Made by a program: the position numbers and the translations under genes | The notes under the pieces: model-generated | What the model saw: the letters and a program-made list of their open reading frames with translations, nothing else | Database searches by the model: none | Told to the model about the DNA's origin: nothing | From: Minisyncoccota bacterium | Lineage (GTDB): Bacteria; Patescibacteriota; Minisyncoccia; Phycocordibacterales; UBA2100 | NCBI GenBank assembly: GCA_022842645.1 | Contig: JALHPE010000001.1 | Coordinates: 71,711-135,710, forward strand | Length of the DNA stretch: 64,000 bases | Reading direction: 5' to 3' | Shown: piece after piece, positions 50,986 through 64,000 of the stretch | Position numbering within the stretch: the first letter of the stretch is position 1 | Layout of the letters: the number at the start of each line of letters is the position of its first letter

Positions 50986-52305
50986 TTATGCCTCGAGCAA
51001 CTTGATTACAGCATCCTCAAAATCACGTATATGGAAACGCTCTCGCACCTGCTCTTTCCAATTAGATGCACCAAGGTCAACATCAGGAACGACACCAAAC
51101 CCCTCGATAGCTTCGCCATCATCGCGCACCATCAAGGAATGCACGAGAAGCACTGAGTATTTCTCAGTCTCGTCAAACTGCGTCTTCAAAGGAAAAGTGT
51201 TTTCAACCGTGCCCCAGCCCTTGGTAGTCTTCCCTACAACAACGCCGAGGTTGAAACGCTTAAACATGGAAGTTGTTAGTTCCGCCGTCGAGCGGGTCTC
51301 GCCATCAACGAGAATTGCTACATCCTTCAGCTCTGCAAGACCTGGTATACGCCCTATTTGCGGCGTGCGCTCAATCTGTGCATCGCCTTGATGGAACAAG
51401 TCATACGCATACTGATTGGGTCCCACAAAAAGTGCGAGCATATATTTTGCAAAATCTAATGTGCCGCCCATATTACCCCGCATATCAATGATCAAGCTGT
51501 CGAGAGCAGGATTCTCCCCTGTCGATGTAAGTGCAGTAATAAATTCTTGGAATGTTGCGGGAGTTACCTGAGCCAAATCGACGTACAAAATGTGCCCCGC
51601 TATCGTGCGCGAGACAAGTGAAGGTTCTATTTTTGCCTCGTCGTAGACCGCCTTTGATGCCTCTTCTGAGAGCACATCCTTCGCGCGCTCCACTTCCGCA
51701 AGTTGTATCGCGGCTTCGGGCGTCGCCTCCGCTTCAAGTTCGGTTTTCTTCTCTACATATGCTGTCGCGACATCATCGGTACTCGCGCCGTCAGGAAGAC
51801 CAAGGCTCTCATAGAGATTTGTATCGCGGTCGACATTGTTTACCACATCTCTAAACGCGATCTCCTGCTTTTCAGAGAGAAGTCCGCTGCGCCCTTGTGG
51901 CGCAAGGTTCACGAGCGCAACAAGGGATGTATCGTGTGCAAGCGCTTTCCGCTTGTCCTCGAGAATAGCGTCAAATTCTTTTGCGAGCACGCGCGCAAGC
52001 TCGGTGCGCGTTAGTTCAAAGGCATCTACCGGTACATCTCCTTTAGCCTTTTGTAGCGAAAGACGAAAGAGCTCAACAAGCTCGTTTTCAGGAAGCTTCT
52101 TCCAGTACTCTTCTGAAATGACGTCGAACACTTCCATCGTGAAGCGAACGAACACGCTTTCAGCTTCCTCGGGGGTTTTGTATGTTTCAGTCGGTATAAC
52201 AACCTCAGCATTCAGTGTTGTGTGTTCATACCACTGATACCCACCACCCAGAAGAACAAGCAAGACGATCAGAGATGCGGGAAATACAAAACGAGAACGT
52301 GACAT
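50986..52305 (-). CDS. S41-family peptidase (C-terminal processing protease-like)
   Basis: IIDMRGNMGG and ILVDGETRSTAE motifs typical of S41 tail-specific proteases. N-terminal anchor. Confidence 0.7.
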   Translation of the reverse strand: MSRSRFVFPASLIVLLVLLGGGYQWYEHTTLNAEVVIPTETYKTPEEAESVFVRFTMEVFDVISEEYWKKLPENELVELFRLSLQKAKGDVPVDAFELTRTELARVLAKEFDAILEDKRKALAHDTSLVALVNLAPQGRSGLLSEKQEIAFRDVVNNVDRDTNLYESLGLPDGASTDDVATAYVEKKTELEAEATPEAAIQLAEVERAKDVLSEEASKAVYDEAKIEPSLVSRTIAGHILYVDLAQVTPATFQEFITALTSTGENPALDSLIIDMRGNMGGTLDFAKYMLALFVGPNQYAYDLFHQGDAQIERTPQIGRIPGLAELKDVAILVDGETRSTAELTTSMFKRFNLGVVVGKTTKGWGTVENTFPLKTQFDETEKYSVLLVHSLMVRDDGEAIEGFGVVPDVDLGASNWKEQVRERFHIRDFEDAVIKLLEA

Positions 52306-52370
52306 TGTAATAGGATATCACGACACATCTGGTGCTCTATATTGATTTTGAGGGGGTTTATGTATCAGGC

Positions 52371-52397
52371 AATTCTCAAGGTTCGACCTTGAGAATT
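52371..52397. repeat. Palindromic element family B copy 2 (identical 27-nt core)
   Basis: Identical sequence to copy 1, located between the phosphatase gene stop and the S41 peptidase start. Confidence 0.7.
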
Positions 52398-52407
52398 TAA
52401 AACATGA

Positions 52408-52956
52408 TTATTCGACCACATACACCCAGCCCGGTTGCCACGACTTCGTCTTACGCCAATCTTCGGCAAGCGCCTCTTTCCAAGTCTTGCCCTTAAGAAT
52501 CACATCAAGCGAAAGCTGAGGTGCCTTATGCCCGACAATAGCTATATGCTTCCCGTCATAGTTCTGTTTGAGAAATGCGATGAAGTCGGCAATACGCGTT
52601 TTCACATCTTCATAGCTCTCCCCGTTCGGGAATGGCTTTTCAATGCACTCGTCTTCTTGCATTGGCTCAACGATATCTGAAGAGGCACCATTCAGATCTC
52701 CATAATTACATTCGCGAAGTCGCGCATCCGGGATGATTTCGTAGAGTCCGTCCCACGCAAGTTTTGCCGGATCGTGAGCGCGCTTGAGGTCGGAGCAAAA
52801 GACGACATCGAACCTCATATCCTTTGTTTGCTCTTTCAATGCGACTGACTGTTGGTGGCCGAGCTCTGACAGTTCAACATCTTTCCACCCGGAAGAAATA
52901 TGCTGTTCGTTGTCGGTGGTAGTGCCGTGAACGAAGTAAGTAATTTGTATTGACAT
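52408..52956 (-). CDS. Histidine phosphatase superfamily protein (phosphoglycerate-mutase-like branch)
   Basis: YFVHGTTTDNE corresponds to the RHG catalytic-His motif region, with a downstream LGHQQ motif. Confidence 0.6.
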   Translation of the reverse strand: MSIQITYFVHGTTTDNEQHISSGWKDVELSELGHQQSVALKEQTKDMRFDVVFCSDLKRAHDPAKLAWDGLYEIIPDARLRECNYGDLNGASSDIVEPMQEDECIEKPFPNGESYEDVKTRIADFIAFLKQNYDGKHIAIVGHKAPQLSLDVILKGKTWKEALAEDWRKTKSWQPGWVYVVE

Positions 52957-53071
52957 ATTGATATTTTAACAGAAAAGACCGCTCTCAGCAGGTATGCAAT
53001 TACGGAATAGATATTCTTTCCAGTATCTAACCCCTTTGGTTCTTTCGATACTTAACTACGCTGTTGCCAGA

Positions 53072-53181
53072 CTTGGATTCGCTCCCCGAATATTTCTTGC
53101 GCCGCGGCGCAAGAAATTTCTAGAGCCGCGGCTCGCGGTCTCGCCTTCTAGCGAGACATCGCTCCGCCGTTCGAATCCAAG
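53072..53181. other. Cloverleaf-like composite palindrome: outer 10-bp inverted repeat (cttggattcg/cgaatccaag) enclosing three internal hairpins
   Basis: Palindromes at 53092-53117 (26 nt perfect), 53123-53134 (gagccgcggctc) and 53138-53157 (gtctcg...cgagac), followed by more hairpins to about 53300. Confidence 0.5.
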
Positions 53182-53696
53182 CCGGAGTGTGCGCAGGCAC
53201 ACTCCTTCCGGCAATAAAATTGCTACGCTATTTTATTGGCTTGGCGGGACTATCTACGAACTGTTAGTTGGGAAGAAATGTTCCCGTATCCCAGTGTTTC
53301 CCTCCAGCAAATGCAGCAATTACTGGCGCTGGCTCACTAGAACAGTATCCGTATATCCGTATCAGACCCGTAATGTACCAAGTATAACAGTTACGTACTG
53401 GTGCATATAGACTCGCCATTCCAGATTCTCAAAATGGGTGGTGGGTGTTTTCTTTTTGACCTTTCAGTTCGGCGGGCGGTCACCCTATCCAAGTTGGAGC
53501 ATTTCGGGGCAAAACCCTTACCAGGTGCGCTGTCGTACCATTGTCCTCATTTGTCGTTGATGGTAGTTGAGGACATATCCAAAACCATTGTCCTGTTTGC
53601 TATGCGTATAACCGTATATGCCAAGTTATGGATAAACATAGAAAATGGGTGTACTCTCGTTTTACCTCACCCGAAGTTGGGTAAAAACCACCCACT

Positions 53697-53903
53697 CTAT
53701 AGGGTGTCTTTTTTAGCTCCCTTTTCCTCTTTGGCACGAGCATCGTATTCATCAGCCCATTCTTTCTTGATTGGTCGGTAAATCACATTGAAAAGATTGA
53801 GCAGATTGATTGCCTCCTCGGTAGCCTTCTCATCAGAAATGTCCTCACTAAATTGTTTGCGCCAGATGGTCTTGAAATCTGAAAGCGCCTTTTTGGATAG
53901 CAT
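53697..53903 (-). CDS. Small hypothetical protein downstream of rloC
   Basis: 68-aa charged ORF, 4 nt from the rloC stop, followed by a bidirectional hairpin plus T-run at about 53688-53714. Confidence 0.35.
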   Translation of the reverse strand: MLSKKALSDFKTIWRKQFSEDISDEKATEEAINLLNLFNVIYRPIKKEWADEYDARAKEEKGAKKDTL

Positions 53904-53907
53904 TGTG

Positions 53908-56358
53908 TTATTTCTTTGCTTTCTCCAGCTTTAACTTCCCACATTGGCACTCTATGGACTCTTTGCTTCTGTGATACTCAACAAATTGGTGGCAGTCTTT
54001 GCACCATAATTCGTTCTCCAATTTGAACCATTCTTCTGCCGCTCGCTTTATTTCCGCTGGAGCAATTGAGGTGCCGCTGTTAGTTCTTGCGTGGGATACA
54101 AAGTTACGCATAATCGGCTCATACTTTTTTGCTTCTTGAATCTGTTGAACAGCTGCGTGTCCTTTTGCTTTATCGTTGAGTCGTGCGTACAGCGCATCAA
54201 AAAGCTCCTCCATCGAAGGCGGGTCATTCTTTGTGTAACGATAACGAACTGCCGCCCAAAGCCCCTCGCAGAGTTCGTTTAGAGTGCTCTCTACATAACG
54301 CCCCAGTTTCCACCCTGCATCCTCAATCCTAGTAGAGTCTTTCAGACACTCTTCAATCTCTTCTTGAGTGGTAGCAGCGACATCAATCACAGCGCCTGTC
54401 TCATAGCCCCAGCTTTTAATTTTCTTAGGTATCCACTTCGGGAATCGGCGAACAATTTTCTGGAACCAATAATAATCGTGTGTGAAAAGTATTATCTGAT
54501 AATCGCTAAACTCCTGCTCAATCAAATCGAGCAGAGTGTCTCGCTTGTCTATATCGAGACTGTTCATTATGTCGTCAAGAACTATGAACTTGCAGCTATC
54601 GTTGAACTGTTTGATGCAGGTGAAGTAAACCGCCAAGCCCAGGCTGTTGAGTAGTGATTCACTCAAGACCTTGTACGCAGGTTTAACTGTTACATCGTAG
54701 TAATGCAGCTGTATTTCTGCGGAACGCCCAGCTGCTCGTCCTTTCTCTTCGTTGAGAACAATCTCAATGTTCTTAATGTCTTTATCATTTCTCAAAATGG
54801 AAAAGTATTTGCCAATCCTTTCTGAAATTTCATTGAAGCGCGACTTTATATTTTCTTGAATGAGAGTGATGAGCTTGTTGCTTACCGCAGCAAAAGCAGT
54901 GATTTCTTTTTCCGTGAATTGAGATTCAGCTTCCGTATCCCGTATTTCAATTAGCTTCACCCTAATTTGGGTAAGTTTTTCTATATCCTCTGCCAACTTC
55001 AAGTCCCTCTCTGAAGGCTGAATCTTCGTCTTTTCGGAAGTGATGGTTTTTAGAACTTCTTTCTGTTCCGCTTCTACCTGTTCGATGAGTTCCTTTGTGA
55101 GAGCAATTTCGGTTGTAGCACCAAGTGGCTTAGCAAGCCAGCCGCTTTCAAGTCCAGAGAGAATTTCCTTGTAGGCTTTGGTCTTTTCGTAAGTGAGAGC
55201 AGGTATTATTTTTTGCACATCGTCATACTTTGATAGCAACCTCTCTATGGTGCCCGCTTCCTGTCTCACAACTGATTTCAAAGTGTTAATTACTTTCTCT
55301 ATGGCTTCTTTGTCCTCCTTAACTTTCGTGAGTAAGTTCAATTCGTCTTGAATATGCTTGACCAGCTCATCTCTTTCCCAAGATGTGCCGCAAACGGGAC
55401 AGGTAGTGCTGGTTTCCGTCTGTTTATTCAAAACCTCTAGCGCTTGGTCATACAGACCAATGACATCAATCTGTTCTATTCGTTTTAGCTCTTTGTTGAA
55501 GTCGTCTAATTGCTTCTTTGCGTCAACGAGCGAACCAAGCAGCGTATTGCTTACAGTAAATAATCCGATACTGGTTTCAGCTTGAGTAAGCTTGTCTATG
55601 GTGATGCCCACAGATGATGTGGCACGCAATTTTGCGAACTCTGGAATGTAGGCGAGAAGACCCTCGATACTTTTCTGTTCAGCAATCTTGTGAGCGGTCA
55701 GTACGCCGTTACAGATACGTAGGATTTCTATGTCGGATGTATCTTGGCTACCCGTAAGCTTGAATAGATGCTGTTCAAGCGCCTTTACAGTGGCAGCAAG
55801 CTCATCCTTCTTTCGCTTTAACTCTGGGAGAATTTTAAGGGCAAGTTTTTCCTGGAACGACAGCTCACTTTCAAAACCCATCCAGTTTGCAAGTCGTTGG
55901 TATTTTTTCAGTCCCGTCTGATTGTAAACAAAGTCTATTACCTCCAAGTAACGAAGGTATGGCTTAATTACGAATGCTTTGTAAACATTCTCAAAGTCAT
56001 CATCAGAAGACAGAGATGGCTGCGTAATCTTTTTGTGATTGTAGGTTTTGCGCAGCGTATCAAGTTTCTTTTCAGAATCGTCGAACTGCAACTCAACAAA
56101 ACTTTCGTCTTTGTCTGGGTCAACTGCCAAGTGTGGGTACGCTTTTTCTTCAGCATCCTCTCTTGTGAGCCATTCAACTTTGTTATCTTCAGACAAGAAC
56201 CATTCGACACCATCAACAAAAGAAGTTTTGCCAGAACTATTTAACCCATAGAGAACGAGTGAGCGCGGTTTTTTATCATCCTTTGCTGTAAGGAGTAAGT
56301 CCTGTGGCTTGAGAATGCCCCTGAAACCGCTAAGCGTTATTTTTCTTACTTTCAGCAT
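53908..56358 (-). CDS. rloC: RloC-like anticodon nuclease: Rad50/SbcC-like ABC ATPase with a coiled-coil zinc hook and a C-terminal PrrC-like tRNase domain
   Basis: Walker A GLNSSGKTS, a long coiled-coil with CPVC at its centre, Walker B FIVLDD, and H-loop LFTHD. The C-terminal roughly 200 aa carry KLGRYVESTLNEL and NFVSHARTNSG, matching the PrrC/RloC nuclease motifs. It sits next to the restriction-modification genes. Confidence 0.7.
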   Translation of the reverse strand: MLKVRKITLSGFRGILKPQDLLLTAKDDKKPRSLVLYGLNSSGKTSFVDGVEWFLSEDNKVEWLTREDAEEKAYPHLAVDPDKDESFVELQFDDSEKKLDTLRKTYNHKKITQPSLSSDDDFENVYKAFVIKPYLRYLEVIDFVYNQTGLKKYQRLANWMGFESELSFQEKLALKILPELKRKKDELAATVKALEQHLFKLTGSQDTSDIEILRICNGVLTAHKIAEQKSIEGLLAYIPEFAKLRATSSVGITIDKLTQAETSIGLFTVSNTLLGSLVDAKKQLDDFNKELKRIEQIDVIGLYDQALEVLNKQTETSTTCPVCGTSWERDELVKHIQDELNLLTKVKEDKEAIEKVINTLKSVVRQEAGTIERLLSKYDDVQKIIPALTYEKTKAYKEILSGLESGWLAKPLGATTEIALTKELIEQVEAEQKEVLKTITSEKTKIQPSERDLKLAEDIEKLTQIRVKLIEIRDTEAESQFTEKEITAFAAVSNKLITLIQENIKSRFNEISERIGKYFSILRNDKDIKNIEIVLNEEKGRAAGRSAEIQLHYYDVTVKPAYKVLSESLLNSLGLAVYFTCIKQFNDSCKFIVLDDIMNSLDIDKRDTLLDLIEQEFSDYQIILFTHDYYWFQKIVRRFPKWIPKKIKSWGYETGAVIDVAATTQEEIEECLKDSTRIEDAGWKLGRYVESTLNELCEGLWAAVRYRYTKNDPPSMEELFDALYARLNDKAKGHAAVQQIQEAKKYEPIMRNFVSHARTNSGTSIAPAEIKRAAEEWFKLENELWCKDCHQFVEYHRSKESIECQCGKLKLEKAKK

Positions 56359-56512
56359 ATCGTTTTTTTATGAGATTCAGTATCTTACCAGCGGTGTCTT
56401 TGCCATCTTCATTTGTCGCATTGGAATCAGACAACAACTGAATGAACGCTGCATCCAGTTCTTTGTCTTTCTTCATTTCCTCAAGATGAGTTTTTATGAT
56501 GTCGCTGCTCAT
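56330..56512 (-). CDS. Small hypothetical ORF between hsdMS and rloC
   Basis: 60-aa ORF from ATG 56512 that overlaps the rloC start by 29 nt. Coding status is uncertain. Confidence 0.25.
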   Translation of the reverse strand: MSSDIIKTHLEEMKKDKELDAAFIQLLSDSNATNEDGKDTAGKILNLIKKRYAESKKNNA

Positions 56513-56516
56513 ATAT

Positions 56517-59015
56517 TTATTCGCCCCAAACCTCGGCGATTTTGGATTTAATCTTTTCCTCAAACAACGCCACAATTGCTTTCGTAGCTTCAATTTGTTG
56601 CTGCTCTTCTTTGAGCTTCGCTATTACCTCGCGCTGGACTTCCAACGACGGTAACGGGATTTTGAAGCCCTTTACCTGGTCAGTGGTGAGATTCTTGAAC
56701 ACTGCGCCGATTGATAGCGAGTGGTTGACTACTTTCTGGTAGAACAGCACATAGTAGAAAAACTCTGGCAATATATCTTTTGAAAGTTCTCTGAACCCAA
56801 CCCAACCGTCGTGAATACACGCATCAACTTTTAGTATTGATGGTAAGCCAGGATTGCCGCTCACTGCCATTACCACTTCTCCTTTCTTCATTGGTCTACT
56901 CAACTTTGCGCCCTCTTCGGTGAGAAAATCTGTCTCTGGCATAACATACATTCCGTCTCTGGTTACATCGGAAATCATTAGGCGGGGAACTTTACCGCCA
57001 TAGTAACGAGAGTCTCCCTGGGGTCGTGGCGAACTACCGCGAACCAATTTACAGATACTATCTACATCAACGGTTTTCCAGCTCGCGTCAATCTTTATGA
57101 GGGGTTTGTAGTTGGTAACAATTTGCTTTGCACCATCAATAACTTTCTGATAATTACCCAGCTCTGTAACAAATTGCTCTTGTATCTCCAGGGGCGGGAG
57201 AGGAATGGAGAAAGAATAGAAACCATCAACTTTCAAATGCTTAACATTCGCTCCATTAGAAAAATTAACAATATAGTCTCGGTATTTCTTAGACCTTAAG
57301 AGATAGTAAAGGTAGGTCGTATTCAAACGGGAATCCTTTAAGACAATTCTTCCGAGGTCGGCGGAATGTGCTGCGCGTATGGATTCAGTAATAATTTTAG
57401 GTGCACCAATAATTTCCGAAGTTGGTGTTAGGTCAGTGAGAGCTATCAGAACATCTCCCGTCTTAACAAGAAATTTCTCTTTAACACCGCCAGTAAAATA
57501 CTTGAATCCGTGGTCAAATAAATCGCCATTTCTCTTAATAGATTTTAAGTTATAGAGAGGAACTCCCGCCTCTGTTTCGCTTATTTCTTTACTGGAGTAT
57601 GAAATACCGCGCTGAACCTCACATAACTCACCCAGCTTTACAACATCCCATCGTTGATTGCTTTGCAACGCGGCAACTTTATAGCTTTCTCCAGAGAGAT
57701 TGTAGTCTCCACTTGCTTCAATCTTCGACTTGGGCACTGCCCAGGCAAACAAGCTACCTTTCTTAACGAGAGAGTTTTTAGTACCTGCTTTAACGGCGGC
57801 GCGTTGTTCGTGCAAAACTTCTACGGCGTGAGGAAGGTCGTTTCTATCTACTGGTCTTCGCTGTGCTCCAAGTTCAAACCCATCATTGAGGACTTTCACA
57901 AATAATATTTCCTTTGATTGTTTTGCAATCTGATTATCAAAAAAGAGAATACTGGTTTTTACACCAGAGTAAGGACTAAAGACTCCAGCGGGTAAAGAAA
58001 CAACTGCATAAAGTCCGTCTTCAACAAGAATTTTACGAAGTTGTTTGTAGGCGTTTGATGCGGTGAAAATAATTCCCTCGGGCACGATGATACCCGCACG
58101 CCCCTTGTTGTTAAGATGCTCGGTAATGTAATCAACGAAAAGAACCTCGGAGCGGTTAGCATCTACTGTAAAACGCTTGTGTGGACGGATACCGCCCTTC
58201 GGGGTCATAAAAGGCGGATTCGCCATCATTACATCAAAGCGCTCATCCCATTTCTCTTCGCTCGTCAGGGTGTCATATTCGTGGATGTTTGGGCTTGGAA
58301 AGCCGTGCAGATACATATTCACCAGGGAGAGCTTCACCATATCTGGAGAAATGTCGTACCCCGAAAGGTTGCCCATTAAGCGCTTCTTTTCGTCGGGAGT
58401 TAGCGGCTTATTCTTGTTCGATTTGAGAATGTGTTTATAGGCTGAAATAAGAAAGCCTGCTGTGCCACACGCGGGGTCGAGTATCGTTTCGTCTTTCTTT
58501 GGGTCAACAACCTCAACAATAAAATCAATGATGTGTCGGGGTGTTCTAAATTGTCCCGCATCACCTTGAGAGCCGAGCACAGAAAGCAGATACTCAAACG
58601 CATCACCAAGATTCTCGCTATGGTCGTATGCAAAACTGTTTATCTCTTTCAAAAAGAGATTGAGTGTTTCGGGGTCGCGGTATGGCAAAAAAGCATCTTT
58701 GAAAATGTCGCGGAAGAGTTGCGGAAGATGCGGATTCTTCGACATCTTTGCAATGGCTTCAACATAGAGATTTAGACGCTCCTGTCCACCAAGCTTTGCA
58801 TCCATCATCTTGCCCCACGCATACTTTTCAAAACCATTCGTGAAAAACTGCGCCTTACCCTTTGGCAAAGAAGCCGCCTGCTTATCCATATCGTCCATAA
58901 ACTTGTAGATAAGAGCGGTGGTAATTTGCTCTACCTGCGCTTTTGGGTCAGGAACTTTACCAACCAAAATGTCCCGCGCCGAGTCAATCTTCTTTTTTAT
59001 TTCGGGGGTAAGCAT
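56517..59015 (-). CDS. hsdMS: Type I restriction-modification fused methyltransferase-specificity subunit (HsdM N-terminal and N6-adenine methylase domains plus two HsdS target-recognition domains)
   Basis: HsdM_N region, motif I DPACGTAGFL, and motif IV NPPF in the first roughly 430 aa. These are followed by two target-recognition repeats with the conserved PLPPLEIQ / PLPSLEVQ motifs. Confidence 0.85.
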   Translation of the reverse strand: MLTPEIKKKIDSARDILVGKVPDPKAQVEQITTALIYKFMDDMDKQAASLPKGKAQFFTNGFEKYAWGKMMDAKLGGQERLNLYVEAIAKMSKNPHLPQLFRDIFKDAFLPYRDPETLNLFLKEINSFAYDHSENLGDAFEYLLSVLGSQGDAGQFRTPRHIIDFIVEVVDPKKDETILDPACGTAGFLISAYKHILKSNKNKPLTPDEKKRLMGNLSGYDISPDMVKLSLVNMYLHGFPSPNIHEYDTLTSEEKWDERFDVMMANPPFMTPKGGIRPHKRFTVDANRSEVLFVDYITEHLNNKGRAGIIVPEGIIFTASNAYKQLRKILVEDGLYAVVSLPAGVFSPYSGVKTSILFFDNQIAKQSKEILFVKVLNDGFELGAQRRPVDRNDLPHAVEVLHEQRAAVKAGTKNSLVKKGSLFAWAVPKSKIEASGDYNLSGESYKVAALQSNQRWDVVKLGELCEVQRGISYSSKEISETEAGVPLYNLKSIKRNGDLFDHGFKYFTGGVKEKFLVKTGDVLIALTDLTPTSEIIGAPKIITESIRAAHSADLGRIVLKDSRLNTTYLYYLLRSKKYRDYIVNFSNGANVKHLKVDGFYSFSIPLPPLEIQEQFVTELGNYQKVIDGAKQIVTNYKPLIKIDASWKTVDVDSICKLVRGSSPRPQGDSRYYGGKVPRLMISDVTRDGMYVMPETDFLTEEGAKLSRPMKKGEVVMAVSGNPGLPSILKVDACIHDGWVGFRELSKDILPEFFYYVLFYQKVVNHSLSIGAVFKNLTTDQVKGFKIPLPSLEVQREVIAKLKEEQQQIEATKAIVALFEEKIKSKIAEVWGE

Positions 59016-59018
59016 AGA

Positions 59019-61535
59019 TTACATATAGGCGTTAAGAGACACATAGTCCTTCACATATTCAGGCACTTTCTCGACCCATCCGTTCACTGCTTCCAAGTCA
59101 GCCATATTGAGCTTTGGATTTGTTGCGAGACGGGTATATTCACCCTTTTCGATGATGTCTCGAATCTCGTTGTCGGTAATGTATGCCTTGAGGTAGTTCT
59201 TGATTGGCATTGCATACTGGCTTTCTGGCTTGTTGATGGCGACAAACTTTTCAAACTCGTCCTCAAGAAGTTCGTCTTTTGATTTGAAATTGGTTATGCC
59301 GCCGAAAGCTTTTTCAACAAACTCACGTAAGCTGATACGACGGTCAGCTTTTACAGACCTGCGCAATTTATCAAGACTGAAGAACTCATCTGGCTTGTCA
59401 AAAATCTCGTCCTTCACATAGTCTTCAATGGTTGCCAAATCACCCTCGGCATATTTCTGCTTGATGAATGGATTTTCTGTAATGGTCGTCTCAAACTTCT
59501 CAAAAAGCTTGCGGTCAATTTTCATACCCTCAACACCAACAGCTTTTTCTGAAAAGGTTTTGAGTGGGTCTGGCTGGGTAATTACGATTTCATCAATGTT
59601 GATACCGCCTCCATCCTCTCCGCCACCCGTGCCAGTTTTAGGCGGTAAGTGCAGAACCTCGTCGTAGTCATACTTTTCCTCGAAGTATTCGCAGTTAGCG
59701 AAGAAATCGAAGAGCTTGAATTTATCCTTTGGGATTCTAGCTTCTTGAACTTCACCTGCATCTTTTTCTTTATGCGCAAAAGTGAACTTGCGTGTGCCGC
59801 GCCCCTTTATCTGGATGAAGTCAGTTGGTGAGAAAATTGGACGCATCAAACACACATTGAGTATGTCTTCGCAGTCGTAACCAGTAGTCATCATCCCTAC
59901 CGTTACGCATACGCGAGTTTTGCTTGAGCGGTATCCCTCCAAGAACTTGGTGTGCCCGTTTAGATTGTTGTTTGCAAAATTTACAGTAAAGCTCTGTGCG
60001 TCAGGAATGTTTGAGCTAACCTGTACTGCAAAATCTGAATTGTATTTGCCTGGGTAGAGTTGGTCAGCAAACTGGTTGAGAATCTGCGTAACTTTTGAGG
60101 CGTGCTTCTGGCTCACGCAGAAAATTAAGCTCTTCCCAATTTCTCCAGTGATAGGGTCTTTAACGGCATTCTCAATAAATGTCTTGCAGAAAATCTGGTT
60201 GGTCTTATCGGAAAAGAACTTCCTCTCAAAGTCAGTGTGAAAGAATGACTGCTCTTCTTCTTTGCCGTTCTCATCCTCAATCATCATCGCGTAACCCTTC
60301 TCTGAAAGAAGCTCCGTAGTAATTTCAGTCCGAGCATCGGCAACGACTGGGTTCACTAAGTACCCATCTTTTACGCCATCAAGCAAGGTGTAGCGGAAGG
60401 TAGGCTCGCCAGTCTCACAGCCGAATGTTTTGTATGTGTCAAAAAGCTGGCGGCGTTCCCACGCACGAGGGTCTTTTGAGTTCAACTTTTCTGGGTCAAT
60501 GCCTTTGAGATAATTTCTCGGTGTTGCAGTGAGTCCAAGTTTGTAGCTCACGAAGTATTCAAAGACCGCTCGGCTGTTTCCACCGATTGAGCGGTGGGCT
60601 TCGTCAGAAATAATCAGGTCAAAGTCAGTTGGAGAAAAGAGCTTCTGATACTTGTTATTGAATGAGAGGCTTTGCACTGTTGAAACAACAATTTCTGCCT
60701 TGCGCCAATCATCCTTATTTTCCTTGTAGATGACTGTCGTGTAGTCCTTCGAGAGCCACTTCTTAAAGTTCTTATTCGCCTGGTCTTCAAGCTCCAAACG
60801 GTCAACAAGAAACAGCACACGCTTTGCGTTGCCTGTTTTCAGGAAAAGCTTGATAACTGCTGCGGATACGAGCGTCTTACCTGTGCCCGTAGCCATCTCA
60901 AACAGATAACGGTCATTGCCCTTACCTCCAGAGTCTTGCAGTGCTTTTATCGCTCGGAGCTGATACGGACGAAGGAATTTCAATGCCTCGGTATCAATAA
61001 GACCCTGGCGTTCTTTCTCATCAGCCCAGCGTGGGTCGCTGCGATAATCAGACTTTTGCGTAAGAACGATGTAGTCCTCATCAACCTGCTCATCCGCCAA
61101 TCGCTTTGGGTTAGGCTTGAATGCCTCAAAGTGCTGAAGAGAGGTCGGTGTAGGAAATTGGATAATGACAGTCGGATTGCCACGCTCTAAATCCCAGAAG
61201 TAGTGTAAGTTGCCGTTTGAGAGGATAATGAAGCGCACATTGAGCGATTGGGCGTACTTACGTGCCTGCTCTTTGCCATCGAGGGGGTCTTTGTCTTCTG
61301 ACTTGGCTTCGAGCACGACATACGGAAATCCCTTTTCATCGAGAAGAAGAAAATCTATGTAGCCGTTCTTTGTTTTTTCAAAGTCACTACCGAGCGCATC
61401 AACTTCTTTTTGGGTGAGTTTCGCATTCGTCTCAAGTGTGATGTTGGCTTTACCGTTGGCGTCATCAAAAAAGCGCCAGCCTGATTTCTGGAGTAAGTCG
61501 TTTATCTTTATTCGTGCCTTAGCTTCTTTTTGCAT
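59019..61535 (-). CDS. hsdR: Type I restriction enzyme R subunit (compact, 838 aa)
   Basis: N-terminal PD-(D/E)xK nuclease (DFLLLDE...LEAK), SF2 helicase motifs (GTGKT, DEAH in LIISDEAHRS), and a C-terminal helical domain. Confidence 0.85.
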   Translation of the reverse strand: MQKEAKARIKINDLLQKSGWRFFDDANGKANITLETNAKLTQKEVDALGSDFEKTKNGYIDFLLLDEKGFPYVVLEAKSEDKDPLDGKEQARKYAQSLNVRFIILSNGNLHYFWDLERGNPTVIIQFPTPTSLQHFEAFKPNPKRLADEQVDEDYIVLTQKSDYRSDPRWADEKERQGLIDTEALKFLRPYQLRAIKALQDSGGKGNDRYLFEMATGTGKTLVSAAVIKLFLKTGNAKRVLFLVDRLELEDQANKNFKKWLSKDYTTVIYKENKDDWRKAEIVVSTVQSLSFNNKYQKLFSPTDFDLIISDEAHRSIGGNSRAVFEYFVSYKLGLTATPRNYLKGIDPEKLNSKDPRAWERRQLFDTYKTFGCETGEPTFRYTLLDGVKDGYLVNPVVADARTEITTELLSEKGYAMMIEDENGKEEEQSFFHTDFERKFFSDKTNQIFCKTFIENAVKDPITGEIGKSLIFCVSQKHASKVTQILNQFADQLYPGKYNSDFAVQVSSNIPDAQSFTVNFANNNLNGHTKFLEGYRSSKTRVCVTVGMMTTGYDCEDILNVCLMRPIFSPTDFIQIKGRGTRKFTFAHKEKDAGEVQEARIPKDKFKLFDFFANCEYFEEKYDYDEVLHLPPKTGTGGGEDGGGINIDEIVITQPDPLKTFSEKAVGVEGMKIDRKLFEKFETTITENPFIKQKYAEGDLATIEDYVKDEIFDKPDEFFSLDKLRRSVKADRRISLREFVEKAFGGITNFKSKDELLEDEFEKFVAINKPESQYAMPIKNYLKAYITDNEIRDIIEKGEYTRLATNPKLNMADLEAVNGWVEKVPEYVKDYVSLNAYM

Positions 61536-61566
61536 AGTACATTTTCATATTCATTGGGAGTTGGAC

Positions 61567-61758
61567 TTATCCCTTCTTTTTCTTACCCATCTTGAAACTA
61601 CTCTCAATAAAATTATCGAGGTCTTCCTGTCGGAATCTCCAATAACCTATTTTAGCGGCTTTAATACGCCCGTCGTGAAGGTAGCGAAACAGTGTACGCT
61701 CGCCTACATCCAGGTATTTCGCTGCCTGCTTCAAAGTTAAAAACTTCTCTTTCTGCAT
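61567..61758 (-). CDS. Excisionase / AlpA-type helix-turn-helix DNA-binding protein
   Basis: 63 aa, with LTLKQAAKYLDVGERTLFRYLHDGRIKAAKIGYWRF typical of the excisionase (MerR-like) family. Confidence 0.65.
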   Translation of the reverse strand: MQKEKFLTLKQAAKYLDVGERTLFRYLHDGRIKAAKIGYWRFRQEDLDNFIESSFKMGKKKKG

Positions 61759-61838
61759 AATGTCTAATTTCTAAACTTCTACTCCCACAGTTTATCTCTT
61801 TTATTCGTATCTGGCAAGATTTGGCAACTTCTGCTAAA

Positions 61839-62531
61839 ATGAATTTTATGAGTATGGATATGAAAATGACACTCGAAGAGAAAGATTCCTTATTTGCTCG
61901 CATTATCAGCGAGCATCTTGCGACACAAAAAACTTCTCCAGTATATGTGCCCACGTCACACGTCGAGGCGAAGGGTTTTGATACATCTGATACCAACAAT
62001 GCACTTTGGAGACTCAAAGATAATGGTGCGATAAAGAAATACAGGCGATGCTGGGGCTTTTTTGAAGTTCAAAATGGCAAGAAGAAGTTTGTGATAACAA
62101 GTGCCAACGAGCAACAAACAGATGAGGACGCAGAGGTGTTTGAAGTTGAGGTTGTTCTAGGACGACTTGCACAGATGACTAAAAATAGAGGCGGGGTCTC
62201 AAAGACAAACGATGCGGTTGTTCTTCACCTCAACAAAAATGGTGATTTATTCAAAGAACCAAGAGAAAAGTTTTGTTATGAAATGATGGGTGCAAAAGTC
62301 CCTCTCAAGATTTTGAGATACTTTATTGATAATCCGAATACTGAATACGAGCAGTCCACAGAAGACATAGCATCAAGCATTGGAATGAAAGCTGAACAAC
62401 TCCGAAAAGACATTGGTGAAATGCGAAGAACTATCAAGAATAGGCTTAAGTTGCCACTAGAATTATTTGAAGGACGGCAAGGTAGTGGCTATCGGCTCAA
62501 TCCAAAGGTAGAAATCATACAAGAGAACTAG
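61839..62531 (+). CDS. Hypothetical protein of the island
   Basis: ATG at 61839; the track begins at TTG 61821. No motif recognised. Confidence 0.45.
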   Translation: MNFMSMDMKMTLEEKDSLFARIISEHLATQKTSPVYVPTSHVEAKGFDTSDTNNALWRLKDNGAIKKYRRCWGFFEVQNGKKKFVITSANEQQTDEDAEVFEVEVVLGRLAQMTKNRGGVSKTNDAVVLHLNKNGDLFKEPREKFCYEMMGAKVPLKILRYFIDNPNTEYEQSTEDIASSIGMKAEQLRKDIGEMRRTIKNRLKLPLELFEGRQGSGYRLNPKVEIIQEN

Positions 62532-62660
62532 ATACCTACAGCTACCCTGTAGGTACTGTCCATAACTTGAAGAGCGGCTGTGTAAACAGGCGCTTTTTCC
62601 GTTTCAAAAAGTATCTACCGATTATGTTCAGAGACGGCAGCACATTGCTAATTTTAAGCA

Positions 62661-62906
62661 ATGGAAGATGCAGAGAAAATCGGAGTAAGTGATTTGGGCT
62701 TGGCGTCCCTTTTGGCGACGCTTCAATTTCAGATGGTCGGTCTGGAGCGTGTGAACGAAAAACGCATCAACTTTCTGTTCACGCAAGTGGAGGGCATTGA
62801 GAAAGTAATCAATGATTATTGGGCTGGCGCTGAAATTTCAGTCCCAGTTCAGAGTCTCTTCTTTAACCAGAAGACACTCAAGAATCGTTTGTATGCCTTC
62901 AAATAA
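62661..62906 (+). CDS. Hypothetical small protein
   Basis: 81-aa ORF with ATG start. Confidence 0.4.
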   Translation: MEDAEKIGVSDLGLASLLATLQFQMVGLERVNEKRINFLFTQVEGIEKVINDYWAGAEISVPVQSLFFNQKTLKNRLYAFK

Positions 62907-63062
62907 ATGAAACTTACCGATGAACAACTGCAAGCACTGCGAGCACCATTCGAGGAAGCTGGTGCATTTGTTGATTGTTCAGAAGAGGAGATAAAGAGTT
63001 TGCTGGAAGCGATTGCAGAGATTTACGTGACTCTCGCAAAAGAAAACCTACTCACAAAGTAA
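62907..63062 (+). CDS. Hypothetical small acidic protein (51 aa)
   Basis: ATG 62907 immediately after the previous stop. Translation MKLTDEQLQALRAPFEEAGAFVDCSEEEIKSLLEAIAEIYVTLAKENLLTK. Below the ORF-track cutoff. Confidence 0.3.
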   Translation: MKLTDEQLQALRAPFEEAGAFVDCSEEEIKSLLEAIAEIYVTLAKENLLTK

Positions 63063-63067
63063 TAACT

Positions 63068-64000
63068 ATGCAAAATGAAAATCAAAACTTAATAGACGCG
63101 CTTCGATACTGCCAGTTGGGATTCTCGGTGATACCAGTGAACTTTCAGAGCAAGGTGCCCCTTGTGAACTGGCGGGAATACCAAAGCAAGCGTGCTTCAA
63201 GTGAACAGATTGAATACTGGTTTAAGAATCCAGAGGTCAATGTGGGCATTGTTACAGGCGTCATCTCTGGAATTGTAATTGTAGATATTGATACTAAAGA
63301 GAAAATCGGCAGACCATTACCTCCAACCGCAACAACTCGCACGGGTGGTGGTGGCTCACATTTTGTATATAGACATCCTGGGATTCCAGTAAAGACTGTT
63401 GCTGGACTACTCCCTGGGGTTGATATAAGAGGTGACGGAGGATATGCGGTGTTTCCACCATCAACGCACCAAAACGGTAACAAGTACGAATGGATAATAC
63501 CGCCAGAGGACGGAATTACTGAACTGCCAGAATGGGTACTTGAGGAACTGTCCAAAAAGCCACCTCAAAACACAGGAAAGATACCCGAAGGCGCAAGAAA
63601 CTCTGCTGCAACACAGGTTGCTGGCAGGTTGCTTAGCGGTGCCCTCACAGAAGAACTCTCGGCGCTTGCTTGGGAAACTATGAAGCAGTGGAATGAGGAG
63701 AAGTGTGAGCCACGCCTGCCAGACAAAGAACTACGCGCAACCTTTGAGAGCATCTTTAGGCGTGAATCAACTAAGCGAGCGACAGAAAAATCTCACTACG
63801 AGTTGCAGACCATCACGCTATCGGAATTGGCTGCAATGGAGTTTTCAGCTCCAAGATGGCTGGTAGATAAACTCATACCACACGAGTCTGTGACTATCAT
63901 TTCTGGAGCACCCGCATCGTACAAGACGTTCATTACGCTCGATATTGCACTCAAGGTGTCTCGTGGGGAAAAATTGTTCGGCGAGTTTGAAACGAGCAAA
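63068..64000 (+). CDS. Bifunctional DNA primase-polymerase (Prim-Pol) N-terminal domain fused to a P4/RepA-like AAA ATPase, 5' partial (runs off the window)
   Basis: My own translation from ATG 63068: SVIPVNFQSKVPLVNWREYQ, then IVDIDTKE, then GVDIRGDGGYAVFPPSTH, then NKYEWI. This is the Prim-Pol signature. It is followed by VTIISGAPASYKTFITLDIA, a Walker-A-like AAA_25 motif. Absent from the ORF track because it has no stop in the window. Confidence 0.75.
   Translation, partial: MQNENQNLIDALRYCQLGFSVIPVNFQSKVPLVNWREYQSKRASSEQIEYWFKNPEVNVGIVTGVISGIVIVDIDTKEKIGRPLPPTATTRTGGGGSHFVYRHPGIPVKTVAGLLPGVDIRGDGGYAVFPPSTHQNGNKYEWIIPPEDGITELPEWVLEELSKKPPQNTGKIPEGARNSAATQVAGRLLSGALTEELSALAWETMKQWNEEKCEPRLPDKELRATFESIFRRESTKRATEKSHYELQTITLSELAAMEFSAPRWLVDKLIPHESVTIISGAPASYKTFITLDIALKVSRGEKLFGEFETSK

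Follow-up and report, generated by a model that had tools for sequence, protein, structure and literature searches.

What is the function of the large protein encoded at the 3' end of a type I restriction-modification (R-M) operon in a Minisyncoccota bacterium? The stretch examined, referred to here as the window, comprises 64,000 nucleotides (nt) of contig JALHPE010000001.1, and all gene coordinates follow its numbering (positions 1-64,000). The gene encodes a protein of 816 amino acids (aa) which an initial annotation had described as an RloC-like zinc-hook anticodon nuclease. To our knowledge, only two suicide ribonucleases (RNases) that couple an ATP-binding cassette (ABC) ATPase to a HEPN domain have been studied, namely PrrC and RloC. 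The functional analogy to RloC drawn earlier appears reasonable; the family assignment and the reading of the catalytic triad that went with it are not supported. By its sequence, the protein is best regarded as a member of a separate, large, unnamed and uncharacterized family of the ABC-ATPase-HEPN kind, and we propose, with a probability of roughly 0.6, that it serves as the large subunit in an abortive-infection module of this kind, which would comprise two genes and be analogous to RloC, with both its RNase activity and its trigger being predictions.

The open reading frame (ORF) is intact, with an ATG start and 816 codons, and its extent was confirmed; the strand, which had not been stated, is the minus strand. 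At a G+C content of 42.9%, a stop-free run of this length has a chance probability of approximately 6e-22. All of the motifs quoted earlier were recovered in the translation, these being CPVC (residues 320-323), KLGRYVESTLNEL (684-696), NFVSHARTNSG (752-762), and CKDC...CQC (786-806). The AlphaFold2 (AF2) model of the full-length protein (predicted local distance difference test score, pLDDT, 82) consists of an N-lobe (residues 1-160), a helix pair with a hook, a C-lobe (530-640), a small unit of beta structure (643-660), then a helical domain (665-784), and a terminal zinc-ribbon-like hairpin; the modeled architecture is that of an ABC ATPase of the Rad50/SMC type which is interrupted by a coiled coil and followed by a nuclease-like domain and a zinc ribbon. 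A Rad50/SbcC-type head divided in this way had been suggested from the sequence, and the AF2 models and fold searches agree with it, the closest solved folds to the full-length model being the heads of Rad50, SMC, cohesin, condensin, and JetC (Foldseek). With Pfam, only SMC_N (2e-10) and AAA_21 were matched, and the best matches in PADLOC, whose models were applied without curated cut-offs, were to LmuB (8.5e-25 over residues 32-642, and 2.1e-22).

Alignment of 107 full-length homologues, taken here as the close family, revealed the full set of ATPase motifs to be strongly conserved. Within the Walker A motif, G38, N40, G43, K44, and S46 are invariant, as are L565, S566, E567, S568, D595, D596, and H627 of the C-lobe, which carries the signature LSESLLNSLG (565-574), the Walker B motif FIVLDD (591-596), and the H-loop THD (626-628). 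Helices 163-311 and 329-522 of the AF2 model form an antiparallel coiled coil and flank a beta hairpin (317-328) that places CPVC at the apex, as had been anticipated. C320, P321, and C323 are invariant both in the close family and in 81 distant superfamily sequences; the match to Pfam Rad50_zn_hook is weak (E 0.038). In the model, CPVC is the zinc hook at the coiled coil's apex, with zinc binding predicted.

Searches of the C-terminal domain against Pfam, PADLOC, and the sequences of the PDB returned nothing meaningful, and it was fold comparison alone that identified the domain. In the model, residues 665-784 adopt the all-alpha, up-and-down helical bundle of the HEPN fold, with matches that include 7ae2 and 5yep, two HEPN toxins paired with antitoxins. 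The two segments quoted previously as PrrC/RloC anticodon-nuclease motifs do contain conserved residues of this fold, E690 (within helix 675-699) and H756, but they do not reproduce the RloC triad. The arginine selected earlier, R687 of GRYVE, lies three positions before E690 and is Arg in only 45 of the 107 homologues; the conserved arginine is R751, in a motif that had gone unrecognized. This motif, R751-N752-F-V-S-H756, is a canonical Rx4H with a polar residue following the Arg, and R751, N752, and H756 are retained by 106, 105, and all 107 of the homologues, respectively. E690 provides the second conserved acidic residue of a HEPN domain within the local pattern E-x3-N, the superfamily description giving an Ex3[KR] motif (Anantharaman et al. 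2013, PMC3710099). The near-invariance of these four residues in the close family is the pattern of catalytic HEPN domains. PrrC and RloC have nuclease domains that have themselves been assigned to this superfamily (PMC3710099). The Cys-rich zinc ribbon proposed to follow was upheld by conservation: no homologue departs from C786, C789, or C804, and 90/107 retain C806. The model places short beta strands at residues 794-796 and 801-803.

The ATPase gene had been reported to lie 160 nt downstream of hsdMS; it does share a same-strand operon with hsdMS, but the 158 nt that separate it from the stop codon of hsdMS are not intergenic, being occupied by a 60-aa ORF that begins 4 nt past this stop codon and whose end shares 29 nt with the start of the ATPase gene. 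Small ORFs of unknown function had been noted on both sides of the gene and both exist on the minus strand, but only the upstream one is conserved. Using tblastn or ORFs at the same position, an ORF of 54-82 aa was found directly upstream of nearly every homologue, often of 60 aa and with a 29-nt overlap, and a small overlapping upstream gene is also present in a branch at 27% identity and in plasmid copies at 22-24% identity. The 68-aa ORF downstream had no tblastn match 3' of any homologue, nor any match in Pfam, PADLOC, or NCBIfam; it was rejected as a component of the module and is regarded, on this comparison, as part of the window locus only. Because the upstream ORF is conserved and the downstream one is not, the conserved unit is taken to be a two-gene cassette of small ORF and ATPase. 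Conservation of the 29-nt overlap in length across many loci suggests translational coupling of the partner to the ATPase. Most of the small proteins are acidic, the isoelectric point (pI) of many being 4.3-5.5, and their alignment shows two predicted helices and motifs that include D-x2-F-I-x2-L and R-Y; their conserved C-terminal tail may be constrained by the overlapping N-terminus of the ATPase. The 60-aa partner matched nothing in Pfam, PADLOC, or NCBIfam. The overlap has the same length in the window (56330-56358) and in loci L003, L005, L006, L008, and L026; in the window it contains the A-run GAAAAAT.

A search of 5.8 billion proteins yielded approximately 110 full-length relatives with 36-82% identity which, where named, are nearly all from Patescibacteria metagenomes and bear generic labels ("hypothetical protein", "AAA family ATPase"). 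When 1.84 billion cluster representatives (50% identity) were searched with a C-terminal domain profile, 857 matched at E<=1e-3 and 289 at E<=1e-10; among the matches listed, most are of approximately 800 aa and carry the domain at their C-terminus, and the shorter ones may be fragments. Across the 81 superfamily members (18-37% identity), N40, G43, K44, C320-P321-x-C323, D595, D596, D602, Q621, T626, H756, and C786 are invariant, and E690, N752, and the remaining Cys of the ribbon nearly so; in distant members, the N and H of the HEPN motif persist while the Arg varies. Plasmid-borne members occur in cultured Brucella, Sphingomonas, Rhizobium, Phaeobacter, and haloarchaea, where they are annotated "AAA family ATPase", and a search of a phage collection found no homologue. 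One homologue with 60% identity (P0010) is labeled as belonging to a metagenome-assembled genome of Candidatus Hodarchaeales, an Asgard archaeon, which reflects either horizontal transfer or a binning artefact. Six proteins carrying PF13166 (P0115-P0120), the Pfam AAA_13 family that holds PrrC and RloC, were considered as real RloCs and rejected, their AAA_13 matches being sub-threshold and confined to the signature/Walker B stretch. They represent a second family of ATPases of approximately 800 aa, which has a CPVC hook and is extended by 60 residues at the N-terminus; it has only the ATPase core in common with the window protein and matches the PADLOC candidate PDC-S06 and mad3 models.

The linkage to hsdMS, previously considered the expected one for RloC, recurs as linkage to R-M genes in general and is not specific to type I systems. 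Of 26 distinct loci examined, 23 were informative for R-M context, and in 12 of these R-M genes directly adjoin the pair, nine times within 35 nt and on the same strand in every locus with strands listed. The adjoining genes are of at least six kinds, including types I, IIS, IIG, ISP-like, III, and IV: type I in the window and L015; IIS AlwI with two methyltransferases in L005; an SNF2 helicase with an ISP-type methyltransferase in L007, L008, and L023; PLD-SNF2 with an MmeI-type methyltransferase and PD-(D/E)XK in L026; Eco57I-like IIG in L009, L011, and L029; type III Mod-Res in L027; and an EcoRI-type methyltransferase with GmrSD in L025. The association with R-M systems is real, indifferent to their type, and not obligatory. 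An earlier reading of this linkage as unconserved, made when tblastn with the window HsdR and HsdMS gave no matches near the homologues, was overturned when Pfam showed R-M genes of other types. In Parcubacteria LiPW_30, where the homologue is 81% identical, a 78-aa relic of HsdR (L002, 9558-9782; the same locus as L021) is 73% identical to the window HsdR; there the R-M system has decayed and the pair of small ORF and ATPase is intact.

Features of the operon and of the ATPase protein (window numbering; conservation among the 107 close homologues)
Feature	Residues	Position	Strand	Basis or remark
HsdR, type I, 838 aa, EcoAI/FtnUII-like; opens operon		59019..61535	(-)	Pfam ResIII 7e-41, HSDR_N
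HsdM-HsdS fusion, type I, 832 aa; same operon		56517..59015	(-)	Pfam N6_Mtase 3e-54, two Methylase_S stretches
Partner ORF, 60 aa, conserved		56330..56512	(-)	sequence; homologous loci
Zinc-hook ABC/SMC-like ATPase with predicted HEPN domain and zinc ribbon, 816 aa		53908..56358	(-)	ORF and translation
ATPase head, N-lobe	1-160	55879..56358	(-)	contains Walker A
Walker A, GLNSSGKTS	38-46	56221-56247	(-)
Q-loop, Q169, just past N-lobe	169	55852-55854	(-)	kept in 103/107
Antiparallel coiled-coil insert	163-522	54793..55872	(-)	AF2 model
Zinc-hook hairpin, insert apex	317-328	55375-55410	(-)	AF2 model
CPVC	320-323	55390-55401	(-)	sequence
ATPase head, C-lobe	530-640	54439..54771	(-)	signature, Walker B, H-loop
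HEPN domain (predicted)	665-784	54007..54366	(-)	predicted fold and motif
E690	690	54289-54291	(-)	Glu in 104/107, Asp in 3/107
Rx4H motif, RNFVSH	751-756	54091-54108	(-)	homologue alignment
Zinc ribbon, CKDC-x14-CQC	786-810	53929..54003	(-)	conserved Cys
68-aa ORF, 4 nt 3' of ATPase stop		53697..53903	(-)	gene call on the window's own contigs

The five genes of the window operon are separated by gaps of 3-4 nt or overlap. HsdR matches the NCBIfam model restrict_EcoAI at 4.8e-68, under the cutoff of that model, and the HsdM-HsdS fusion matches the PADLOC models MTase_I (6.6e-100) and Specificity_I. In classical type I systems, M and S are encoded by separate genes; here N6_Mtase and two target-recognition domains are combined in a single chain of 832 aa, with HsdR separate. 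Around the homologues, recombinases, Prim-Pol genes, AbiE, and a reverse transcriptase or prokaryotic Argonaute (pAgo)-associated nuclease are frequent neighbors. In the window, the G+C content falls from approximately 0.51 to 0.43 across the island, with the drop at about 52-53 kb, a gene encoding a 63-aa HTH_17 (excisionase-like) protein (61567-61758, minus strand) precedes hsdR, and the gene found next in the metagenome contigs of the window itself is of the Prim-Pol/PriCT_1/AAA_25 type. For these reasons, the operon of R-M genes and cassette (approximately 52000-64000) is placed on an integrative mobile element that extends beyond the end of the window; no transfer RNA (tRNA) gene that could serve as integration site is present in the window. 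Two plus-strand ORFs, at 52994-53410 (138 aa) and 53401-53781 (126 aa), lie between the island and housekeeping genes; neither has a Pfam match, and the second overlaps the 68-aa ORF. On alphaproteobacterial plasmids, those of Brucella anthropi, Aliiroseovarius crassostreae, and Phaeobacter inhibens (L030-L032), the cassette stands alone near repAB and Tn7-like or insertion sequence (IS) elements; in these copies (22-24% identity) the Arg of the HEPN motif is lost (ANLVSH, INKAVH), and the N, the H, and the zinc ribbon are kept.

HEPN RNases, which are characterized as metal-independent endoribonucleases, usually function as dimers, with their Rx4-6H motifs located at the dimer interface. We infer from the features above a mechanism in which the Rad50/SbcC/LmuB-type ATPase would serve as the sensor of a DNA-related signal, probably forming dimers by way of its CPxC zinc hook and of an ATP-driven contact between its two heads. 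The effector fused to it is predicted to be a HEPN endoribonuclease (E690, R751-N752-x3-H756), followed by the C4 zinc ribbon. Because such RNases are active as dimers with the motif at the interface, the ATPase cycle would determine when two HEPN domains meet, bringing them together to create a composite RNase site. Cellular RNA, perhaps tRNA, would then be cut and translation would stop in the infected cell. The 60-aa protein, apparently translationally coupled, is proposed to regulate, inhibit, or silence the enzyme. As a portable cassette, often carried at the 3' end of R-M operons, the pair would form a second line of defense when restriction fails, and backup HEPN effectors associated with R-M-like systems have been recognized as a general theme (PMC12839542). 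A bolder version, which we hold tentatively, is that the pair is a distinct and widespread unnamed defense system, namely a backup independent of R-M type in which a Rad50-like sensor would detect a shared consequence of failed or blocked restriction (for example, unprocessed foreign DNA ends or an anti-restriction protein), the HEPN domain would cleave RNA, and the small, usually acidic partner would act as a safety catch or as a decoy displaced by phage factors.

Several observations weigh against the proposed abortive-infection module. The C-terminal domain has no match to any Pfam HEPN family or PADLOC model, so that its assignment to HEPN is based on predicted structure and motif, and pLDDT is below 50 in the loop bearing H756. 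The Arg is missing from distant superfamily members, and RNase chemistry may for this reason not extend to the whole superfamily. For this experimentally uncharacterized family, the function is a prediction. Approximately half of the loci are without adjacent R-M genes, and a functional link to restriction is consequently not obligatory, while binding or inhibition of the ATPase by the small protein is a proposal.

Two of the rival explanations would assign the protein to a known system. Three features define RloC (Davidov and Kaufmann 2008, PMC2610378), namely the motifs of an ABC ATPase, a coiled-coil insert bearing a CXXC zinc hook, and a C-terminal triad of the form Arg-X3-Glu-X36-52-His, and a true orthologue would be a wobble-nucleotide-excising anticodon nuclease governed by an internal zinc-hook/ATPase switch. 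The window protein possesses all of the ATPase motifs and a CXXC hook in a predicted coiled-coil insert, it has a Ser before the His as do many RloCs, and its size and layout (816 aa, C320, E690, H756) match those of GkaRloC from Geobacillus kaustophilus (804 aa, hook C291, triad R692, E696, and H737; accession YP_146738, from genomic DNA; PMC2610378); on the plasmid of this species, pHTA426, no RloC is annotated. However, the residue four positions before E690 is Gly in 78/107 homologues, the Glu-His spacing is 65, and the conserved partner gene and zinc ribbon are described for RloC in neither case. The protein had no match to AAA_13 at E up to 10, and no RloC or PrrC model was among the PADLOC matches of the whole protein, PADLOC being taken to contain an RloC model and the search having been made without a positive control. 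One superfamily protein, from an Aliiroseovarius plasmid, does pass the AAA_13 gathering score with 47.9 bits, but only 19/58 members reach E 1e-3, and in those examined the match covers the coiled coil and ATPase C-lobe (profile positions 236-599 of 713) and not the nuclease end. Membership in RloC as now defined is not supported, as judged by profiles and the published motif, and orthology is distinctly unlikely. RloC has also been placed among the homologues of LmuB (PMC12663957), a relationship that would suit orthology and leads to the second candidate, a compacted Lamassu in which an LmuB-like sensor with a fused effector would respond to phage DNA ends or replication intermediates, the 60-aa protein replacing LmuC. 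The best PADLOC matches of the window protein are to LmuB, and one LmuB model, again with no curated cut-off, matched all 58 superfamily members scanned; long LmuB proteins likewise have an hhhhDD Walker B and a single CxxC hook, LmuB senses DNA ends, and Lamassu effectors are modular, with some clades lacking LmuC or effector (PMC12663957). The scores are nevertheless modest and limited to the ATPase and coiled coil, the window operon has no LmuA or LmuC gene and no LmuA C-terminal domain, the 60-aa and 68-aa ORFs match nothing in PADLOC, neither LmuA nor LmuC was found among the neighbors in 25 other loci, and HEPN is absent from the effector domains listed for Lamassu (PMC12663957). We consider this derivation unlikely.

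The other two rivals would take the pair out of antiphage defense or the RNase out of the protein. HEPN toxins with paired antitoxins are well known, and the fold matches to 7ae2 and 5yep are of this type; a toxin-antitoxin or addiction cassette that stabilizes its mobile element or plasmid, with the HEPN-ATPase as toxin, the acidic small protein as labile antitoxin, and no dedicated antiphage role, would account for two overlapping genes in the order small then large, for the low pI of the partners, and for plasmid copies located near repAB, transposases, and recombinases without R-M genes. Yet a zinc-hook ATPase of 800 aa is far more elaborate than a toxin requires, and the linkage to R-M operons in about half of the loci, together with AbiE, GmrSD, reverse transcriptase, and pAgo-associated nuclease neighbors, indicates defense islands. 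A toxin-antitoxin role is also compatible with abortive infection, the two not being mutually exclusive; as the sole explanation it is very doubtful. A non-suicidal accessory of R-M enzymes, that is an SMC/Rad50-like factor for DNA tethering or end processing whose HEPN-like domain binds nucleic acid or nucleotides without cleavage, would be consistent with the tight operon linkage to R-M genes, with closest solved structures that are DNA-end-binding Rad50 and SMC heads, with the loss of the Arg in distant members, and with the existence of certain non-catalytic HEPN domains (PMC3710099). The catalytic-HEPN pattern of nearly invariant R751, N752, H756, and E690 in the close family speaks against it, as do the occurrence of the pair without R-M neighbors in about half of loci and on plasmids and the lack of an Mre11/SbcD-like nuclease partner, and we regard such a role as most improbable.

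If the module functions as proposed, it would offer a tractable two-gene system in which to study the activation of an RNase by a Rad50-like machine and to ask if a single backup device is able to serve numerous restriction systems that are unrelated to each other. The candidate-phyla-radiation bacteria, the immune repertoire of which is poorly charted, would gain a defense system as well; were the reading as a distinct system true, this would be an abortive-infection layer not described before for the reduced-genome Patescibacteria. Should the RNase be inactive, the family would represent a new SMC-like accessory of R-M enzymes. Three features of the family have not been described for PrrC or RloC, these being the terminal zinc ribbon, the overlapping mini-gene, and the attachment to operons of at least six R-M kinds.

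Among known systems, Rad50/SbcC, which are characterized by a paired Mre11/SbcD nuclease gene and a long coiled coil, share with the window protein the fold of the head, Rad50 and SMC heads being its closest solved structures, but its coiled coil is only approximately 360 residues in length and none of the loci examined has an Mre11/SbcD-type gene next to it. LmuB of Lamassu resembles it over residues 32-642 as a CxxC SMC-like ATPase related to SbcC/Rad50, with an hhhhDD Walker B, one zinc hook, and a coiled coil that is short, and both would follow the logic of abortive infection, an SMC-like sensor turning on a toxic effector; Lamassu, in contrast, employs a separate effector, LmuA, which has a conserved C-terminal domain of its own, and in most cases LmuC, whereas the predicted effector of the window protein is fused to the ATPase, is of a type outside those described (PMC12663957), and is accompanied by a partner of 60 aa without a match to LmuC. 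Catalogued fusions of ABC ATPase and HEPN comprise the PrrC/RloC/APECO1_4465 and ERFG_01251 families (PMC3710099), and these have the same domain logic and occur in R-M operons and mobile neighborhoods; RloC-like proteins have been noted with RhuM/Fic nearby (PMC3710099), as has been seen here with the L025 homologue, which has a RhuM/Fic gene close to the pair. ERFG_01251 differs, by its description, in having an N-terminal HEPN/Toprim-NTD1 domain where the window protein starts with the ATPase.

PrrC, the anticodon nuclease of the E. coli EcoprrI locus, which backs up a type I enzyme and depends on EcoprrI (PMC3710099), also joins an ABC ATPase to a C-terminal HEPN-type RNase within one operon with type I hsd genes, and the concept of an RNase that stays restrained until restriction has been shut off would apply to both. 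At approximately 400 aa, however, PrrC has no coiled coil or hook, compared to the 816 aa and 360-residue insert of the window protein, and it is located inside a type Ic hsd locus and silenced by that enzyme. The window gene stands at the 3' end of an operon with hsdR and hsdMS and has its own partner, and its homologues occur with six R-M kinds or with none. RloC is rarely linked to R-M genes, unlike the window family with its many R-M types in about half of loci; it is described as a single gene, with no ribbon described, whereas the window family adds the terminal C4 zinc ribbon and an overlapping 60-aa partner, and an E-x60-RNxxxH motif replaces the Arg-X3-Glu-X36-52-His triad. The likeness to RloC is nonetheless extensive, comprising a single chain of approximately 800 aa, an ABC head interrupted by a coiled coil that bears a CxxC hook, a C-terminal HEPN RNase (predicted here) in which a conserved Glu stands approximately 125 residues before the end and a Ser-His comes after it (E690 and S755-H756 in the window protein), and occasional linkage to type I/III R-M systems. 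The HEPN nuclease of RloC is switched by the ATPase and zinc hook, which respond to DNA (Klaiman et al. 2012, PMC3458546), and both proteins have been proposed to provide a translation-disabling backup to restriction.

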